Source: Novosphingobium sp. (GTDB lineage Bacteria; Pseudomonadota; Alphaproteobacteria; Sphingomonadales; Sphingomonadaceae). Taken from it: a stretch of DNA of 64,000 nucleotides. Made by a program: the position numbers and the translations under genes. Shown here piece by piece: positions 30,210 through 38,312 of this stretch. The notes under the pieces were generated by a model, which was not told the origin of the DNA, did no database searches, and saw only the letters and a list, made by a program, of their open reading frames with translations. The stretch lies in NCBI GenBank assembly GCA_031428115.1, contig JANPOS010000070.1, forward strand, positions 97,418 to 161,417, read 5' to 3'. How positions within the stretch are numbered: position 1 is the stretch's first letter; every line of letters begins with the position of its first letter.

Positions 30210-30995
30210 ATGTTCGACACACTCCTGACCCGCTTTGACCCGCTTGAGCTATGGCTTGGGGCCTTCCTGATAACCGGGCTGATCGCCGGGATTACCTCGG
30301 GCTGGTTCAAGGCGCGCAAGATCCAGCCCAAGGGCTTCAGGCTGAAGCAGTTCGGCTTCGAGGCGATGATCGCAGTGGTCAGCGTCGGCATTTCCGGGGT
30401 GCTTATCGGCGGCGCACAGACCTGGCTCAAGGCCAACGGCTATATCGCCTTCCAGCAAGGCCCGGCCGCCTGGTATGTCGTGCTGTTCGAATATGCGCTC
30501 TATTTCATCACGTTCGATACCTGGTTCTACTGGCTGCACCGCTGGATGCATAACGAGCCCTATTACAAGTGGATCCACAAGCTCCACCACCGCTCGACCT
30601 CGCCCAACCTGCTGACGACGCTGTCGGTCCATCCTTTCGAATCGTTCATCAACGGCGGCTGGATGGTGATCTTCATCACGCTGTATGACGTGCACACCAG
30701 CTCGATGGTCTACATCGGCGCAACCAACATCATCATGGGGCTCTATGTCCATTCGGGCTATGAGTTCTTCCCGCGCTGGTGGAACAAGTCGTGGGCGACC
30801 AAGTGGTTCATCACCGCCACCTTCCACGATCAGCACCACAAGTATTTCACTGCCAATTTCGGCGGCTACACCACGGTGTGGGACCGGATCTGCGGAACGA
30901 TGCGCCCCAAGTTCGAGAGCGATTTCGTCAAGATCAAGGACCGCGCGCGCGATTGGCGCGACTCCCCGGCCGACGCCCTAGCCGCCGAATCCTGA
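30210..30995 (+). CDS. fatty acid hydroxylase / sterol desaturase superfamily membrane protein
   Basis: It has the His boxes HRWMH, HKLHH and HDQHH plus N-terminal TM helices. Confidence 0.85.
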   Translation: MFDTLLTRFDPLELWLGAFLITGLIAGITSGWFKARKIQPKGFRLKQFGFEAMIAVVSVGISGVLIGGAQTWLKANGYIAFQQGPAAWYVVLFEYALYFITFDTWFYWLHRWMHNEPYYKWIHKLHHRSTSPNLLTTLSVHPFESFINGGWMVIFITLYDVHTSSMVYIGATNIIMGLYVHSGYEFFPRWWNKSWATKWFITATFHDQHHKYFTANFGGYTTVWDRICGTMRPKFESDFVKIKDRARDWRDSPADALAAES

Positions 30996-32192
30996 GCTCA
31001 GGAACCGCTCGGCGAGACCAGCCATATAGGCCGCTCCGCGCGGCAGCACGGCCTCGTCGAGCATCATTCGCGTCGAATGGATGCCGCAGCAGCTCGCCCA
31101 GTTATCGCCTTCGGGCGCCATGCCGATGAAGAACATCGCGCCGGGCACCTTTTCCAGCACATAAGAGAAATCCTCCGCGCCCATGATCGGATCGCGCAAG
31201 TGATGGAATGCGCCCTCGCCGAACATGGCCAAGGCGGTCGCCGCGCCGAAATCAACCGCCCGGGCATCGCAGATGGTCACCGGGAAGCCCTCCTCGATGG
31301 TCACTTGCGCGGTGAGCCCGTGCGCCCCGGCAATGCCCGCCGCCAGCAGGCGAATGCTATCCGCCAACCGCGTGCGGTGTTCGGCAGAGAGGCTGCGCAT
31401 CGTGCCGCGCAGCACCGCGCGGTCGGCAATCACATTGTGTGTGCTGCCCGCCTGGATCGAGGCGACGGTGACCACCACTGGATCGTGGGCATTGAACTGG
31501 CGCGTCACCACCGTCTGGAGCCCCATGACAATCTCGGCGGCAACCGGCACCGGATCGTGCGTCTGATGCGGCAGCGAGGCATGGCCGCCCATGCCTTCGA
31601 CGACGATCTCGATCATGTCGGCAGCCGCCAGCAGCGCCCCCGCGCGCCCGGCAATCAGGCCGTGGCGGGCATTGGGCATGACGTGGAGGGCGAAAGCGGC
31701 ATCGGGCAGCGGATCGATCAGGCCGTCGCCGAGCATGAAGCGCGCACCGTGATGGCCTTCCTCGCCCGGCTGGAACATGAACAGCACTTCGCCCTTGAGC
31801 GATCCTGCCCGTGTGCAAAGCAGCTCTGCCGCGCCCGCCAGCATCGCGGTGTGCGCGTCATGCCCGCAAGCATGCATCGCGCCGGGAATTGTCGAAGCAA
31901 AATCGAGGCCGGTCTCTTCGGGCATCGGCAGCGCGTCCATATCGCCGCGCAACAGCACGCGCTTGCCTGCTCCGGCCCCGCCCTTCAGCACCGCGACCAT
32001 GCCGGTGGTCGATGGCCCCTCGCGCCATTCGAGCGGCAAATGGGCAAGCGCGGCGCGCACCTTGGCGCTGGTTTTCGGTGTCATCAGCCCCAGTTCGGGC
32101 TCGGCATGGATCGCCCGGCGCAGCGCGACGATGCTCCCGGCTCTGGTTTGGGCTTCTTCGATCAGCGACAGGTTTGGCATGGCGGGCCACAT
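30978..32192 (-). CDS. M20D family amidohydrolase (hippurate hydrolase / N-acyl-amino-acid amidohydrolase-like)
   Basis: Motifs LRGDMDALP, MHACGHDAHTAML and FQPGEEG match this family. An alternative ATG lies at 32180. Confidence 0.88.
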   Translation of the reverse strand: MWPAMPNLSLIEEAQTRAGSIVALRRAIHAEPELGLMTPKTSAKVRAALAHLPLEWREGPSTTGMVAVLKGGAGAGKRVLLRGDMDALPMPEETGLDFASTIPGAMHACGHDAHTAMLAGAAELLCTRAGSLKGEVLFMFQPGEEGHHGARFMLGDGLIDPLPDAAFALHVMPNARHGLIAGRAGALLAAADMIEIVVEGMGGHASLPHQTHDPVPVAAEIVMGLQTVVTRQFNAHDPVVVTVASIQAGSTHNVIADRAVLRGTMRSLSAEHRTRLADSIRLLAAGIAGAHGLTAQVTIEEGFPVTICDARAVDFGAATALAMFGEGAFHHLRDPIMGAEDFSYVLEKVPGAMFFIGMAPEGDNWASCCGIHSTRMMLDEAVLPRGAAYMAGLAERFLSSGFGG

Positions 32193-32223: not shown

Positions 32224-33153
32224 TTACGCAGCGATTTCGGCAGCTAGCCGCCGCGCGGCCGCGTTGTGTTTGCGCACCGATAAGACCAACAGCGCGTTGA
32301 GCACCACGGTCTGGTAGATCATGTACCACAGCGGCGATCCGGCGAGCATCGAGACGCCCAGCACGATCGCGCGCGGATTTGGACCGAGGACTTTCAGCCG
32401 GCGCAGCAGCGGCGGGGCTTCGCCGCGCACCAGGCGGGCAATGCGCTCCAGCCTTGCCGGATCGGCCCTGGCTGCCTCGACCGCGGCGTCGACTTTCAGG
32501 GCATCCGGGGTCATGCCGCTGGCGAGCTCGAGATAGCCGGTGACGATCTGGGCAAAGCCAAACCCGCCGGTTTTTGTCTCGCCCTTGTGGGTATTGCGCA
32601 GCCAGGGCGTGGCATAGACCCACCACTGGTATTGCCGCCGCTGCACCTCGACATGGTTGGCCTGGACAATATGGCTGACCCCGGCCGCCACCACGAGCGG
32701 CCAGGCCCACGCGGCTCCGATCTGGAGCGAGAGCAGCCAGCCGAGGATCAGATAGACCACGATGTGGCTGGTGTAGTCGCACACCCCGTCGATCAGTTCG
32801 CCCAGCGGGCTGCTGCGCCCGGTGATTCGCGCAAGATCGCCGTCGGCGCCGTCGACGACGTGCCAGGTCATGTGGAGAGCCATGCCGAGCAGCGCGCCCG
32901 GCCAGCCCCAGCCATGAATGTAGCTCTGGGCATAGACGATACCCGCCGCGACCACGAAGCAGCCGCCGATCACCGAGACCACATTCGGCGTTATCGGGGT
33001 TTTCGCCAGCAACCGGGCCAGTTGCCAGGCGAGCGGATGGTAGAGATGGAAATTGAGCGCATCCTGCAATTCACGCGGGCGAACAGGCCGCTTCAGACCG
33101 GCGGGCACTTTTGGCTGGTCGCTGCCCGCTTCGCCTGCGCCGTGCTCGCCCAT
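32224..33153 (-). CDS. CDP-alcohol phosphotransferase family protein
   Basis: It has the complete family motif DG(x2)AR(x8)G(x3)D(x3)D as DGDLARITGRSSPLGELIDGVCD and is polytopic. The ORF opens at 33243; I prefer the ATG at 33153, but the start is uncertain. Confidence 0.8.
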   Translation of the reverse strand: MGEHGAGEAGSDQPKVPAGLKRPVRPRELQDALNFHLYHPLAWQLARLLAKTPITPNVVSVIGGCFVVAAGIVYAQSYIHGWGWPGALLGMALHMTWHVVDGADGDLARITGRSSPLGELIDGVCDYTSHIVVYLILGWLLSLQIGAAWAWPLVVAAGVSHIVQANHVEVQRRQYQWWVYATPWLRNTHKGETKTGGFGFAQIVTGYLELASGMTPDALKVDAAVEAARADPARLERIARLVRGEAPPLLRRLKVLGPNPRAIVLGVSMLAGSPLWYMIYQTVVLNALLVLSVRKHNAAARRLAAEIAA

Positions 33154-33440
33154 CGTTGATTGCCCCACTGCCTTAGACCTTGCGCCCGGGTAATTCGTCC
33201 ATGCCTGCCGGGCGTGGCGAATCATCTCGGCTCTCTGTGGCACACGGATCGATGCGGTCCCAGAGCGCTGATTGCGTTTGGCAATTCAGCGAGGTTGGCC
33301 TCTCGGATGCCTTGGGATCGGTGATTTTGCCCAGTTCAGCTGCATCGGACTTGCGCAAAGCACTTGCTTTTGCCGCGCGTTTTCACAATGGAGTGGCGCT
33401 CCACCGGACGATTTGCGTCTGTCGGAAGGGATTTTAATTG

Positions 33441-34541
33441 ATGAAGCCTATAAAGGTCGCCGTGATCGGCGTGGGTAACTGCGCCTCGTCGCTGGTGCAG
33501 GGCGTCGCCTACTATCGGTCGAACAATTCTTCGCAGGGCCTGATCCACGACCGCATCGGCGGCTATGGCGCCGGCGATGTTGAATTCGTGATGGGTGTCG
33601 ATGTCGATGCACGCAAGGTCGGCATGGATATTTCCGAAGCCATTTTCTCTGCGCCCAATTGCACCACCGTGTTCCACGAAAATGTCCCCGCCTCCGGCGT
33701 GAAAGTGATCATGGGCAAAGTGCTCGATGGCGTCGCCGAACACATGACCGGCATGGGCGAGCGCGGCTTCATCCTGTCCGACGCGACCGAAGCGACGCAT
33801 GAATCGATCGTCGCCGGTCTCAAAGAGAGTGGCGCCGAAGTGCTGCTCAACTTCCTGCCGGTCGGCTCGGAAGAGGCCACTGAATTCTATATGGAATGTG
33901 CGCTTGAGGCGGGCGTTGCGGTGGTTAACTGCATGCCGGTGTTCATCGCCAGCCGCCCGCATTGGGAAAAGCGCTTTGCCGAAAAGCGCATCCCCATCGT
34001 CGGCGACGATATCAAGGCGCAGATTGGTGCGACGATCGTCCACCGCGTGCTGTCCAGCCTGTTCGGCGCGCGCGGCGTCGATGTCGGCCGGACCTATCAG
34101 CTCAACACCGGCGGCAACACCGATTTCATGAACATGCTCGACCGCCAGCGGCTGGGCAGCAAGAAGGAATCGAAGACCGAAGCCGTCCAGGCGATGCTGG
34201 CACAGCGGCTGGCAGATGAAAACATCCATGTCGGCCCGTCGGACTATGTGCCGTGGCAGAAGGACAACAAGCTCTGCTTCCTGCGCCTTGAAGGCAACCA
34301 GTGGGGCAATGTGCCAATGAACCTGGAGCTGCGGCTCTCTGTGGAAGACAGCCCCAATTCCGCAGCCTGCGTGATGGATGCGATTCGCTGCTGCAAGGTC
34401 GCGCTTGAGCGCGGCGAGGGCGGCGCGCTGATTGGTCCTTCCGCCTATTACTGCAAGCATCCACCGCAGCAGTTCAACGATGATACCGCCGGCCAGATGG
34501 TCGAGGAGTATATCGCCGATGCCGCGCTGGCCGCTGAGTAA
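33441..34541 (+). CDS. ino1: inositol-3-phosphate synthase (myo-inositol-1-phosphate synthase)
   Basis: The N-terminus MKPIKVAVIGVGNCASSLVQGV and the about 365 aa length are typical of the bacterial/archaeal short MIPS. The internal KAQIGATIVHR and LGSKKESKTE regions are also consistent. Confidence 0.88.
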   Translation: MKPIKVAVIGVGNCASSLVQGVAYYRSNNSSQGLIHDRIGGYGAGDVEFVMGVDVDARKVGMDISEAIFSAPNCTTVFHENVPASGVKVIMGKVLDGVAEHMTGMGERGFILSDATEATHESIVAGLKESGAEVLLNFLPVGSEEATEFYMECALEAGVAVVNCMPVFIASRPHWEKRFAEKRIPIVGDDIKAQIGATIVHRVLSSLFGARGVDVGRTYQLNTGGNTDFMNMLDRQRLGSKKESKTEAVQAMLAQRLADENIHVGPSDYVPWQKDNKLCFLRLEGNQWGNVPMNLELRLSVEDSPNSAACVMDAIRCCKVALERGEGGALIGPSAYYCKHPPQQFNDDTAGQMVEEYIADAALAAE

Positions 34542-34610
34542 GCGCCAACCGGCAGTGACACGAAGCGGCGCCGGACCTGTTCCGGCGCCGTTTTCATTTG
34601 GAGAGCACAC

Positions 34611-35351
34611 ATGGACGCACTGATCATTGCCGCCGGATATGGCAGCCGGCTGCGGGAGATTTCCGATGCCAAGCCGCTGACCCCGGTTGCCGGAGTGCCG
34701 CTGCTCGAACTGGGCGTACGCCAGGCAGTTGCCGCGGGAATCAGCCGGGTTGTCGTCGTCACCGGGCACCAGGCTATCGAGATCGAGAAGTTCCTGCCCA
34801 GCCTGTCAGCGCGGGTCGGCATTCCGGTGGTTTCGGAGCGGGTGCTCCACTGGTCAACGCCCAACGGCCATTCGGTGATTGCCGGCGCGGCGAAGATTTC
34901 AGGCGATTACCTGCTGATGATGGCCGATCACATTTTCGAGGGCTCAATCCTGACGCAGCTGGTCCGCGAAGGCACCAAGAGCCGCGGTGTGACGCTGGCC
35001 ATCGACCGGCGGACTGACAGCGCGCTGATCGATCCCGCAGATGCAACCTGGGTCAGAACCGACCGCGACGGCAGGATCGATGCGATCGGCAAGAGCATCG
35101 CCGACTATGACGCCGTCGATTGCGGCGCATTCCTCGCCACGCCGGAACTCGCAAGCGCCATTCATGCCGCGATCGCCGAGGGCAAGGCCGGTAGCCTCTC
35201 CGAAGGCATGCAACGCCTCGCCGATGCGGGCCGCGCCGCGACTATGGATATAGGCAATGCCTGGTGGCTCGATGTCGACGATCCGCGCGCCCATGCGCTG
35301 GCCGAGGCCGAAGCGCCGAAATACCTGCCAGAGATTTTCGCCCCAGCCTGA
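34611..35351 (+). CDS. NTP-transferase (nucleotidyltransferase) domain protein, candidate inositol-phosphate cytidylyltransferase
   Basis: The N-terminal MDALIIAAGYGSRL is the GxGxR nucleotidyltransferase signature. The protein is 246 aa, with GGAGAG 5 nt before the ATG. It lies 70 nt after the MIPS gene. Confidence 0.8.
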   Translation: MDALIIAAGYGSRLREISDAKPLTPVAGVPLLELGVRQAVAAGISRVVVVTGHQAIEIEKFLPSLSARVGIPVVSERVLHWSTPNGHSVIAGAAKISGDYLLMMADHIFEGSILTQLVREGTKSRGVTLAIDRRTDSALIDPADATWVRTDRDGRIDAIGKSIADYDAVDCGAFLATPELASAIHAAIAEGKAGSLSEGMQRLADAGRAATMDIGNAWWLDVDDPRAHALAEAEAPKYLPEIFAPA

Positions 35352-35371: not shown

Positions 35372-36616
35372 TCAGTCCCAGCGGATCGGCAGCGAATCCA
35401 TGGCGATGATGTTGCCCGCATGGTAGGTCGCATGTTTGTCCGGATCGAGCCGGAACTCCGGCAAGCGTTTCAATATCTGCTGATACAGCACCTGCAATTC
35501 GACCCGCGCCAGATGCGCGCCGAGGCAGCGGTGGACGCCCGCGCCGAACGCCAGGTGGACCTTGTTCTCGCGCTCCAGGTCGAAATTCTCAGGGCTCGCA
35601 AATTCGCGCGGATCGAGATTGGCACCGGGGTAATAGAGGATAAGCCACTCGTTCTCCTTCATGCTCCAGCCGCCAAAGTCGCAATCCTTGTTGATGCGGC
35701 GCTGCGGCACCGCGAAGCTGTAGCGGCGCAGCATTTCCTCTGCCGCCTCGGTGATGAGCTCGGGATTGACGCGCAGCTTCGCCTGCAGATCGGGATGCAT
35801 CGCCAGATGGCGAACGGCAAAGCCCATGCCGTTGATCACGGTGTCGAGCCCAGCGATGAACAGCAGGACGCAATAATCTTCCATCAGTTCGACCGACATG
35901 GTCTCGCCCTCGATCTCGGTCTGCCACAGCAGGCTGATGATATCGTCCTTGGGATCGTCCTTGCGCGCCAGGATAACGGGCAGCATGGCATCGGCCACCT
36001 TGCGGAACAGCGTGCCTGAAGCCATCGGATCGGCGCCGGTATTGGCGAGAAATTCCTGCACCAGCACGCGGAATTCCGGCAACCGGTCAACCGGCAGTCC
36101 CATCAGGCCCAGGAAGATCGTCACAGGCAGCGGCACGGCAATATCGGGGATGAAATCGCAGTGGCCCTTGTCGATCACCGCATCGATCAGCTTGTCGGTC
36201 AGCGCGCGGATATCATCAATCTGCTGCATCGCGGCGCGCGGGCTGAAGGTCTTCTGCAGGGGGCCGCGAAATCTTGGATGGTCGGGCGGGTCCATCGAAA
36301 TCGGCGTCGCCTGCGGAATGCGCGGCATGCCCGGCGGCATCATCGCCATCATCGCCTTCATCTTTTCGGGCGGCATGAATGTGCTGGTGAAGCGCTCGGG
36401 ATCGCGCGCGGCTTCGTAGATTTCGGAATAGCCCATGCAGATCCAGCGTCCGCCATTGCGCGGCGTCCAGAACACCGGTGGCGCATCGCGCAGGATCTCG
36501 CGCAGCCGCTCATGCGGATCGGCGAGCAGGCCAGGGTCGGAGCGAAAATCGAAGTCGTAGACTGCCTCAGGCGGGATATGCGCAGGAATGGGGCTGGCTT
36601 CACTTAGGGCGTTCAC
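35372..36616 (-). CDS. cytochrome P450
   Basis: It has the heme-ligand motif FGAGVHRCLGAHLA, an ExxR motif (EMLR) and an I-helix AGLDTV. I moved the start to the GTG at 36616, preceded by GAGAGGAA, which gives about 415 aa. Confidence 0.88.
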   Translation of the reverse strand: MNALSEASPIPAHIPPEAVYDFDFRSDPGLLADPHERLREILRDAPPVFWTPRNGGRWICMGYSEIYEAARDPERFTSTFMPPEKMKAMMAMMPPGMPRIPQATPISMDPPDHPRFRGPLQKTFSPRAAMQQIDDIRALTDKLIDAVIDKGHCDFIPDIAVPLPVTIFLGLMGLPVDRLPEFRVLVQEFLANTGADPMASGTLFRKVADAMLPVILARKDDPKDDIISLLWQTEIEGETMSVELMEDYCVLLFIAGLDTVINGMGFAVRHLAMHPDLQAKLRVNPELITEAAEEMLRRYSFAVPQRRINKDCDFGGWSMKENEWLILYYPGANLDPREFASPENFDLERENKVHLAFGAGVHRCLGAHLARVELQVLYQQILKRLPEFRLDPDKHATYHAGNIIAMDSLPIRWD

Positions 36617-36701
36617 GAATGCGGTTCCTCTCTGGCTGGTCAGCGCGGTTTCTGGCGCATCGTCAAGTCTACAGCAGAGGCGACATGTGATCCACACTAA
36701 A

Positions 36702-38312
36702 TCATGGTCGTCGCCAAAGGAATTCCTTGCGGCGGTCGGCCAGGATCGCGCGCGCGGCATTGTGCCCTGGCGCGCCAGTCACGCCGCCGCCAGGATGGGT
36801 GCCCGCGCCGCACATATATAGTCCCTTGATCGGCGCGCGGTAGTCGCCATGGCCCAGCACGGGCCGCGCGCCCCACAGCTGATCGAGGCTCATTCGGCCA
36901 TGAAAGATGTCGCCATCAACCAGGGCGAACTTGGCCTCGAGATCGCGCGGCGAATGAATCTGGCGGGCGATGATGCTGCTGCGGAAATTGGCAGCATGGG
37001 CGGTGACGGTGTCGATGATGCAATCGGCCGCCGCCTCGCGTTCGGCGTCCCATGTGCGGCCATCTGGCAGTGTGGGCGCGAAATGCTGGCAGAACAGGCT
37101 CGCGACATGGCTGCCCGGCGGCGCGAGTGTGGGATCGACTGTCGAGGGAATGGTCAGCTCGACTATCGGCGCGCGCGACCAGCCGTGGCTGCGGGCCTCA
37201 TCGAAGGCGCGGTCCATATAATCCAGACCCGGAGCAATGATGATCCCCGCGCCGTGATGCTCGGCTTGGCGCTTGCCGGGCAGCACGGCGAAATCGGGCA
37301 ATTCCGACAGCGCGACATTCATCCGGAAGCTCGCCGAGCCGGTCTTGAATTGCGCCATCCGGTGGCGAAACTGCGGGGTAAGATCGCCGGCATCGACCAT
37401 TTTGCGATAGAGCAGCGCGGGGCCGACATTGGCAGCGACGATGGGCGCCGTCAGTTCCTCGCCGCTCTCCAGGACCACGCCGACGGCTTTGCCGCCATCC
37501 ACCAGCACCCGGGCCACCGGGGCCTCGAGACTGATTTCCACGCCGTGATCGCGGCAGGCCGCAGCCATCGCCTCGCTGATCGCCCCCATGCCGCCGATGG
37601 CATGGCCCCAGGCACCCTTCTGGCCGTTTACCTCGCCGAACACGTGATGGAGCAGCACATAGGCCGAGCCGGGGGTGGAAATCCCGGCGAAATTGCCGAC
37701 CACCGCATCGAAGGCAAAGGCCGATTTGATCGCGTCATGCTCGAACCAGCTATCGAGGAATTCGCGCGCGGAAAGGGTGAAAATGGCGAGCAATTCCTGC
37801 TGCGTGGCCAGATCGAGCTGCGCGATCGGCCAGCCTTGCCGAACCAGTCTTGCCAATGCGCGCAAGCCGCCACGGGGTTGCGGCGGTTCCGCCAGAGCAA
37901 GATTGCGCAGCAACTGCGCGATCCGCTCCAGCGCCTCAAGATAAGCGGGATAGGCCGCCGCATCCTTGGACGAAAAGCGCGCAAATTCAACCTGGGTGCG
38001 CGCAATGCCGCCACCGACCTTCAGATAGCCATTTGCGAATGGCAGGAAATTGGCGAGTGGCCGCTCGGCGACAACTAGTCCGCGTTCATGCAGCGCCATG
38101 TCGGCGATTACTTTGGGGCGGAGCAGGCTGACCGTGTAGCTGGCAGTCGAGTTGCGGAAGCCGGGATGGAACTCCTCGGTGACTGCCGCCCCGCCGACGA
38201 CATGCCGCCGCTCGAGCACGCGCACCTTCAGGCCGGCGCGCGCGAGATAGAAAGCGCAGACCAGCCCATTGTGCCCGCCGCCCACGATCAGTGCGTCGTA
38301 CCTGCCTGTCAC
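36702..38312 (-). CDS. FAD-dependent oxidoreductase, phytoene desaturase (CrtI-like) family
   Basis: YDALIVGGGHNGLVCAFYLARAG is a dinucleotide-binding motif. The length and C-terminal GLYMCGAGTHPGGGV match the CrtI family. I moved the start to the GTG at 38312. Confidence 0.82.
   Translation of the reverse strand: MTGRYDALIVGGGHNGLVCAFYLARAGLKVRVLERRHVVGGAAVTEEFHPGFRNSTASYTVSLLRPKVIADMALHERGLVVAERPLANFLPFANGYLKVGGGIARTQVEFARFSSKDAAAYPAYLEALERIAQLLRNLALAEPPQPRGGLRALARLVRQGWPIAQLDLATQQELLAIFTLSAREFLDSWFEHDAIKSAFAFDAVVGNFAGISTPGSAYVLLHHVFGEVNGQKGAWGHAIGGMGAISEAMAAACRDHGVEISLEAPVARVLVDGGKAVGVVLESGEELTAPIVAANVGPALLYRKMVDAGDLTPQFRHRMAQFKTGSASFRMNVALSELPDFAVLPGKRQAEHHGAGIIIAPGLDYMDRAFDEARSHGWSRAPIVELTIPSTVDPTLAPPGSHVASLFCQHFAPTLPDGRTWDAEREAAADCIIDTVTAHAANFRSSIIARQIHSPRDLEAKFALVDGDIFHGRMSLDQLWGARPVLGHGDYRAPIKGLYMCGAGTHPGGGVTGAPGHNAARAILADRRKEFLWRRP

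Follow-up and report, generated by a model that had tools for sequence, protein, structure and literature searches.

We analyzed a 64,000-nucleotide stretch of DNA from Novosphingobium sp. (assembly GCA_031428115.1, contig JANPOS010000070.1, positions 97,418 to 161,417 of the forward strand), called the window below, with a G+C content of ~65%. The stretch carries three adjacent genes that probably build the inositol head group of a membrane lipid, likely a sphingolipid: an inositol-3-phosphate synthase (MIPS), a stand-alone nucleotidyltransferase 69 nt downstream of the MIPS stop codon, and a divergently transcribed CDP-alcohol phosphotransferase. The original prediction had named these three genes, and all of them are present as it described. 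Together with the spacer between them, they are arranged as follows.

32224-33153, minus strand: CDP-alcohol phosphotransferase P0001, with a likely ATG start at 33153 (309 aa) and a PF01066 match
33154-33440, no strand: divergent intergenic region of 287 bp between P0001 and the MIPS-cytidylyltransferase pair
33441-34541, plus strand: inositol-3-phosphate synthase (MIPS) P0002, with matches to PF01658, TIGR03450, and 1GR0
34611-35351, plus strand: stand-alone nucleotidyltransferase P0003 (246 aa), with matches to the IPCT half of NF041135 and to 2XME, 4MND, and 4JD0

Judged by its sequence, P0002 is a standard bacterial MIPS. The gene has an ATG preceded by GGAAGGG, and the protein scored 117.6 bits against PF01658 (Inos-1-P_synth, cut-off 27); its closest solved relative was Mycobacterium tuberculosis Ino1 (1GR0, E = 8.8e-114, residues 5-359). 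It also aligned over its full length with TIGR03450, at 410.6 bits, which is under a cut-off of 638 that is tuned to mycothiol producers.

The N terminus of P0003 reads MDALIIAAGYGSRL. Its top NCBIfam match was the inositol-phosphate cytidylyltransferase (IPCT) half of NF041135 (IPCT/DIPPS), at 94.4 bits (E = 7.5e-27) compared with 59.4 bits for the runner-up family; this is below the NF041135 cut-off of 580, which is set for the fused protein. The top PDB matches, all aligned over their full length, were the IPCTs of Archaeoglobus fulgidus (2XME, 4MND) and Thermotoga maritima (4JD0), and GYGSRL, KPL, and MADH in P0003 align with GLGTRL, KPL, and MGDH in the A. fulgidus enzyme. The Arg, Lys, and Asp of the matching GxG(S/T)RL/KPL/(M/G)DH motifs are critical active-site residues (PMC12275187). 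P0003 thereby has the fold and motifs of an IPCT, with GxG(T/S)RL, the conserved Lys, the catalytic Asp, and IPCTs as nearest relatives, while its substrate specificity is a prediction. It did not group with sugar-1-phosphate or MurNAc-type nucleotidyltransferases, an outcome that the original prediction had named as one that would count against a CDP-inositol pathway.

Co-occurrence was counted in an evenly drawn sample of 300 genomes of Alphaproteobacteria. MIPS was present in 31 of these and P0003 homologs (E <= 1e-28) in 13, all 13 of them MIPS-positive and mostly with the homolog adjoining MIPS. In two genomes, one open frame encodes both MIPS and an IPCT-like cytidylyltransferase (616 aa in G238, L108:16460-18001; 655 aa in G283, G283:C198:37862-39121), which on sequence grounds is a Rosetta-stone fusion. 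The 69-nt spacing, adjacency in relatives, strict co-occurrence, and shared frames all couple P0003 functionally to MIPS.

Another IPCT-like protein, CpgD (CC_1152/CCNA_01210), acts with CpgA (CC_1159/CCNA_01217) in the ceramide diphosphoglycerate pathway of Caulobacter crescentus (PMC12275187, PMC11324152). We found no strong P0003 homolog in ~30 genomes that are positive for serine palmitoyltransferase (SPT) and negative for MIPS, and at E <= 1e-12 just two weak partial matches; P0003 is therefore not an ortholog of CpgD. A CpgD-type CDP-glycerate role for P0003 was rejected on distribution across the 300-genome sample. Because its distribution follows that of MIPS, because fusions with MIPS exist, and because MIPS-negative SPT genomes lack a strong homolog, P0003 is very probably a CTP:inositol-1-phosphate cytidylyltransferase that would supply CDP-inositol as the donor.

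For P0001, the longest open reading frame (32224-33243) begins with GTG. Homologs align from residue ~35-50 of this frame and relatives have ~20 residues before a conserved RPxE(L/I)E, so ATG 33153 is the likely start; ATG 33225 is a possible alternative. P0001 scored 38.4 bits against PF01066 (cut-off 22) in a match that spans residues 85-193 only. The signature of this Pfam family, D(x)2DG(x)2AR(x)7-8G(x)3D(x)3D, lies in TM2-TM3 (transmembrane helices 2 and 3) and is intact in P0001 (DGADGDLARITGRSSPLGELIDGVCD), as the original prediction had it. An exhaustive search gave 86 representatives at E <= 1e-30, which are proteins of ~290-310 aa that can be aligned end to end. D131, D134, G135, A138, R139, G148, D152, and D156 are invariant in 65 family members, and R55, E58, N64, H69, Q194, E199, R202, Y205, and N289 are further conserved positions. 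From these alignments, P0001 is a PF01066 member of a distinct family of ~300 residues, termed P0001-type herein.

Among solved structures, the top sequence matches of P0001 were A. fulgidus DIPPS-type enzymes, followed by CEPT1 and CHPT1. P0001 scored 20.5 bits against NF041135 (cut-off 580, for the fused protein) and 35.9 and 28.5 bits against the phosphatidylinositol-phosphate (PIP) synthase models NF045883 (cut-off 170) and NF052561 (cut-off 350). Scores of P0001 and P0003 below the NF041135 cut-off exclude equivalog status, not a similar mechanism. The genome itself has pgsA, pssA (with psd next to it), and P0001 as its only PF01066 genes, and no PIP synthase is among them. In a tree of the transferase domain, P0001-type sequences fell together. 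Two metagenomic proteins, P0209 (541 aa) and P0191 (619 aa), are distant, ~33% identical family members in fused form, their partners being either an IspD-type cytidylyltransferase at the C terminus or a PfkB-type kinase at the N terminus; sequence relationships of this kind make other CDP-alcohol donors likely within the wider family.

The AlphaFold model of P0001 (pLDDT 94.9, pTM 0.90) has the six-helix transmembrane fold with an N-terminal interfacial helix. Compared by VIA-align, its closest solved structure was AF2299 (4O6M; Z 18.7, root-mean-square deviation 3.0, 199 residues), ahead of the A. fulgidus IPCT-DIPPS (4MND; Z 16.6), PIP synthases (Z ~14), CHPT1/CEPT1 (Z ~11), and phosphatidylglycerophosphate (PGP) and phosphatidylserine (PS) synthases (Z ~9). 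All characterized CDP-alcohol phosphotransferase subfamilies scored above unrelated chains, and Foldseek ranked the solved structures in the same order. A grouping with PGP or PS synthases, which according to the original prediction would likewise have spoken against the pathway, was thus not seen, and the genome's own pgsA and pssA lie elsewhere. The model places P0001 structurally nearest to CDP-inositol-using enzymes. A PIP-synthase reading of P0001 was rejected, since its model scores are under cut-off and PIP synthase structures are more distant than those of the DIPPS type.

About 200 of 290 P0001 residues align with AF2299 and reach the C terminus, the last helices corresponding to TM5-6 of AF2299. 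The extra segment, a polar helical insertion of ~88 residues (~199-286), has a mean hydropathy of -0.34 and separates TM4 from TM5; it is a family-wide feature and not a terminal extension. The original prediction had described a C-terminal extension of ~130 aa, an impression that arose because Pfam covers residues 85-193 only; in its place stand the insertion and then the last membrane helices. The whole P0001 fold recurs (TM-score 0.75 over 272 residues) in an ESM Atlas cluster found most often in Bacteroidota. Sequence searches of P0001 relatives named only alphaproteobacterial and Bacteriovorax proteins, the Bacteroidota link being by Atlas fold match alone.

P0001 orthologs occurred in 19 of 24 same-genus genomes at 56-79% identity, and all five genomes that lack one (97-100% complete) also lack MIPS. 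Linkage was counted in the best 80 loci from a 19-sequence alignment, all of them from Novosphingobium, and the wider distribution was taken from separate genome searches. MIPS adjoined the P0001-type gene in 71 of the 80 loci, the other 9 being truncated by contig ends. The cytidylyltransferase was present too, next to MIPS, in 62, and contig ends or rearrangement account for the rest. Linkage within Novosphingobium reflects common ancestry. More telling than this conservation is that other families of the order and class, whose P0001-family members are 27-40% identical, again have MIPS and the cytidylyltransferase next to the transferase gene, in differing orders and orientations, operonic MIPS-nucleotidyltransferase pairs included. 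Metagenomic P0001-type members (~31% identity) likewise adjoin both genes, and genomes in which MIPS is not beside the P0001-type gene encode it elsewhere.

Some relatives have more at this site. In an expanded Novosphingobium cluster (L014:6844-9428 in G017; also L023, L029, L031, L047, L063, L092, and L098), the space that separates MIPS from the P0001-type gene also holds a second CDP-alcohol transferase, which is DIPPS-like, another nucleotidyltransferase, and a phosphatase of the HAD type; this gene content suggests that the head group receives a second phospho-alcohol there. No homolog of the relatives' HAD protein was found in the genome studied here by tblastn. P0001 is the sole such transferase in the window's cluster and therefore must suffice here. 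On a metagenomic contig (L116:5409-6770, minus strand), the partner transferase P0276 (453 aa) has a degenerate N-terminal nucleotidyltransferase-like domain without the GxGxRL loop, and its signature, DGVDGKLAR...GELEHILDKLVE, has lost the last two canonical Asp positions.

The genomic context of P0001-type genes points to sphingolipids. SPT was found in the genome studied here (NF047603, 806.6 bits, cut-off 670) and above cut-off in ~39 of the 300 genomes sampled. Outside the order, full-length P0001-family members came from five genomes of four families (G053, G109, G229, G236, and G238), and all five are both SPT-positive and MIPS-positive. In three of these, from unrelated families (G109, G229, and G238), 3-5 kb separate SPT and the P0001-type gene, and in G109 a fatty acyl-AMP ligase (FAAL), LptF/LptG paralogs, and a GT4 glycosyltransferase are close by. 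MIPS-positive, SPT-negative alphaproteobacteria have a different transferase, in the form of 450-476-aa IPCT-transferase fusions that adjoin MIPS (L120:1025-2380 in G204, L121:2554-3942 in G340, L122:1181-2566 in G046, and L123:3147-4559 in G057); their motif, DGCDGEIARLK, nearly matches that of AF2299, DGCDGEIARLKFMESKYGAWLDGVLD, and their product may be either a DIP-like solute (di-myo-inositol-phosphate) or an inositol glycerolipid. One genus shows both situations, with SPT and a P0001-type gene in G229 and other transferase types without SPT in G044.

A lipid of the expected kind is known from the genus. Heaver et al. (2022, PMC9246714) found a sphingolipid resembling phosphoinositol dihydroceramide (PI-DHC) in Novosphingobium acidiphilum by retention and fragmentation (35:0 and 36:0), assigned no genes to it, and reported the species to be without homologs of either known inositol-lipid cluster. 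Taken with the distribution of the P0001-type genes, we lean toward ceramide rather than diacylglycerol as the acceptor. Of the options that the original prediction had listed (diacylglycerol, ceramide, or a soluble acceptor), ceramide is the one that comparative genomics favors, through SPT co-occurrence and proximity.

Two other loci concern sphingolipid genes more generally. In G109, genes for LptG- and LptF-like permeases (L109:9722-12222) stand between the MIPS-IPCT-transferase operon and SPT; LptFG paralogs are reported to be tied to sphingolipid export in Caulobacter (bioRxiv 10.64898/2026.04.12.717747), and by analogy the placement fits dedicated sphingolipid exporters. G076, which is SPT-positive and MIPS-negative, has three PF01066 paralogs of 372-431 aa within 12 kb of SPT (L118:1696-2991, L119:1513-2631, and L119:6127-7338). 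They carry an N-terminal soluble domain of ~170 aa that resembles a degenerate nucleotidyltransferase and that P0001 lacks, and their sequences make them probable CpgA-like enzymes of sphingolipid head-group formation.

Several known systems resemble the trio in part. In the MIPS-IPCT-BEPIS operon of Rhodothermus marinus, BEPIS transfers phospho-inositol from CDP-inositol to dialkylether glycerol, as described in PMC4587543 (see also PMC10191378). The window has the same set of MIPS, stand-alone IPCT, and membrane CDP-alcohol phosphotransferase, with no PIP intermediate and no phosphatase, and the same operon-like MIPS/IPCT/PF01066 association. The two differ in the acceptor, dialkylether glycerol in Rhodothermus and, as the context suggests, ceramide here, in a comparison made by description. 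Jorge, Borges and Santos reportedly described BEPIS homologs in Alphaproteobacteria in 2015. The thermophile pathway to di-myo-inositol-phosphate (DIP), with MIPS, IPCT, and DIPPS (2XME, 4MND, AF2299 4O6M, and 4JD0), provides the best sequence and structure matches and the same donor chemistry. Unlike in the fused IPCT-DIPPS, the genes here are separate and on opposite strands, and P0001 has its polar insertion; also unlike the thermophiles, the organism is a mesophile that makes sphingolipids, and its product is probably a lipid and not a compatible solute.

CpgD and CpgA likewise pair an IPCT-like cytidylyltransferase with a transferase of PF01066, in an alphaproteobacterial module for sphingolipid head groups, and so set, by analogy, an example of CDP-alcohol chemistry applied to sphingolipids. 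Their system makes CDP-glycerate and has no MIPS; the Caulobacter proteins were compared by description. The trio does not belong to this type, given the lack of strong P0003 homologs in SPT-positive, MIPS-negative genomes and the lack of an N-terminal domain in P0001. In Bacteroides vulgatus, an alternative cluster near MIPS (nucleotidyltransferase, PF01066 protein, and HAD hydrolase) has been proposed to follow a CDP-inositol route via phosphoinositol diacylglycerol (PI-DAG), with the HAD hydrolase, to PI-DHC, which is unconfirmed (PMC9246714). A CDP-inositol route beside MIPS in a sphingolipid producer is thus a proposal in both organisms, compared here by description; the window's cluster has no HAD gene and does not belong to the B. 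vulgatus type. Drosophila ceramide phosphoethanolamine synthase (CPES) is a CDP-alcohol phosphotransferase that acts on CDP-ethanolamine and ceramide. This eukaryotic PF01066 enzyme is a precedent for a ceramide acceptor, with a donor other than that of P0001. A ceramide acceptor has been shown in none of BEPIS, the alternative Bacteroides pathway, and CpgD/CpgA. The original prediction had mentioned neither BEPIS nor CpgD/CpgA. Going by sequence comparison, the trio does not qualify as an equivalog in any curated family; it follows the same logic as the BEPIS operon and the DIP pathway and is parallel to CpgD/CpgA.

Donor and acceptor are inferred here from the families to which the proteins belong, the linkage of their genes, and joint occurrence with MIPS and SPT, and on balance the trio appears to be a self-contained head-group pathway that gives inositol phosphoceramide (IPC) from CDP-inositol and ceramide. 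MIPS would turn glucose-6-phosphate into L-myo-inositol-1-phosphate, which P0003 would join with CTP to give CDP-inositol. P0001 would then pass the phospho-inositol group of CDP-inositol onto the primary hydroxyl of (dihydro)ceramide with release of CMP, the product being IPC (equal to PI-DHC). By this chemistry, inositol would carry the phosphodiester at its L-1 (D-3) position. Formation of CDP-inositol followed by transfer of the head group, the core of the original prediction, is supported by the IPCT-like P0003, the DIPPS-like fold of P0001, and their linkage. The same prediction had remarked that no phosphatase is visible in the cluster. We found no HAD or PAP2-type second enzyme in the window's cluster either, which agrees with a ceramide acceptor: this route would form no phosphorylated intermediate and therefore need no phosphatase.

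Several points weigh against this interpretation. P0001 and P0003 score far under the cut-offs of every curated equivalog model, and the transferase tree is poorly resolved at depth (63/72 at the base between P0001-type, fused DIPPS-like, and CpgA-like sequences, with long-branch warnings). The nearest structure to Caulobacter CpgD is also T. maritima IPCT (4JD0), yet its product is CDP-glycerate (PMC12275187), so similarity to IPCT is not specific. All Sphingomonadales have SPT, and the association with SPT rests on the four independent families outside the order. A second PF01066 gene lies beside MIPS in 23 of the 80 Novosphingobium loci and in most distant loci. On the acceptor side, the SSPLGELxDxxCD stretch of P0001 is similar to that of the diacylglycerol-using enzymes CEPT1/CHPT1, so P0001 might act on a glycerolipid instead, and the acceptor of BEPIS is dialkylether glycerol, not ceramide (described in PMC4587543).

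The last two points bear most directly on a different acceptor, namely that phospho-inositol passes from CDP-inositol to a glycerolipid (diacylglycerol or ether glycerol) to give phosphatidylinositol (PI) or an analog, from which an inositol sphingolipid would then need a PI:ceramide transferase. BEPIS is the sole CDP-inositol:lipid transferase known to have been shown biochemically (described in PMC4587543), and Heaver et al. proposed the same first step for B. vulgatus (PMC9246714). CEPT1 and CHPT1, with the similar stretch, were the second-best sequence matches, and ceramide and diacylglycerol present similar primary hydroxyls. We nevertheless consider this acceptor unlikely. Outside the order, the P0001 family occurs in SPT-positive genomes only (5/5), with SPT, FAAL, and LptFG genes nearby across three families, whereas SPT-negative, MIPS-positive alphaproteobacteria use the fused transferase, and the window's cluster offers no HAD or PAP2-type enzyme for a second step.

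P0001 could also act later, decorating an already built envelope lipid (a sugar of a glycosphingolipid or a phosphosphingolipid) from CDP-inositol in a second step and not on bare ceramide. CpgA, a PF01066 enzyme, does add a second phosphoglycerate to ceramide phosphoglycerate and not to ceramide (PMC12275187, PMC11324152); two transferases are frequent in relatives, and distant loci carry GT4 glycosyltransferases, Wzx-like flippases, and MMPL or LptFG exporters. This role is improbable, however, given that the P0001-type protein is the sole MIPS/IPCT-linked transferase in this genome and in most Novosphingobium, and that the N. acidiphilum lipid fits simple PI-DHC 35:0 and 36:0 (PMC9246714).

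Less probable again is a soluble inositol phosphodiester (DIP or glycerophosphoinositol), made from CDP-inositol and inositol-1-phosphate and finished by an unlinked phosphatase. The gene logic equals that of MIPS/IPCT/DIPPS, the A. fulgidus DIPPS-type enzymes are the closest solved structures, and the phosphatase of the thermophile DIP pathway likewise lies outside the cluster. On the other side, P0001 reached only 20.5 bits on the IPCT/DIPPS model, P0001-type sequences grouped apart from fused DIPPS-like proteins, and their distribution tracks SPT; DIP itself is, to our knowledge, known from thermophiles only. A pathway with no CDP-inositol, in which P0003 activates another substrate (phosphoglycerate, glycerol phosphate, or phosphocholine) or P0001 uses CDP-diacylglycerol and inositol phosphate like a PIP synthase, is very improbable, since the precedents of CpgD, an IPCT-like fold that takes another phospho-alcohol (PMC12275187), and of distant P0001-family members whose IspD-type or PfkB partners show that donor specificity varies, are set against the MIPS-IPCT fusions of G238 and G283, the 13/13 co-occurrence with MIPS, the lack of strong P0003 homologs in SPT-positive, MIPS-negative genomes, the 35.9 bits on the PIP synthase model (cut-off 170), and the greater structural distance of PIP synthases than of DIPPS-type enzymes.

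Of the genes flanking the trio, the first three in this list were considered as further members of the proposed IPC module and rejected:

30210-30995, plus strand: fatty acid hydroxylase family gene
30978-32192, follows P0001: M20 amidohydrolase
35372-36760, minus strand: cytochrome P450, convergent with the 3' end of P0003
36702-38495, minus strand: flavin amine oxidase

The M20 gene is syntenic within the genus only and is missing from every distant locus examined, and the fatty acid hydroxylase adjoins the trio in just 4 of the 80 related loci and is therefore outside the conserved module. The 287-bp divergent spacer presumably holds the promoters of both transcription units. Consensus scans found no sigma-70-like site in the spacer (33154-33440) and no terminator downstream of 35351, the consensus being uninformative for a high-GC alphaproteobacterium. 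In relatives, a gene for a Wzx-like (Polysacc_synt) flippase frequently adjoins the P0001-type gene (L014:4349-5809; L016, L017, and L021); the sole homolog in the genome studied here is 28% identical and lies on a separate contig (C103:5748-6899).

Sphingomonads have outer-membrane sphingolipids in place of lipopolysaccharide, and the three-gene module is a candidate for the missing inositol sphingolipid pathway of Novosphingobium. We know of no CDP-inositol:ceramide transferase that has been demonstrated. More tentatively, P0001-type proteins could be the first bacterial IPC synthases of the CDP-alcohol type, working in one step without PI, and the family could mark inositol sphingolipid producers across Alphaproteobacteria and some other phyla. 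Eukaryotic IPC is made from D-1-linked PI, and the L-1 (D-3) linkage expected here would make the product a stereoisomer of both the eukaryotic and the Bacteroides thetaiotaomicron-type IPC, an unusual head-group stereochemistry. If this is true, the module would be a third route to inositol sphingolipids, beside the PI-dependent AUR1 and BT_1522 types, and would bring CDP-inositol chemistry, familiar from the solutes of thermophiles and from ether lipids, to the sphingolipids of mesophiles. The combination of a P0001-type gene, MIPS, and SPT would then serve as a genomic marker of inositol sphingolipid producers, which are of interest because related Bacteroides lipids influence host interaction.

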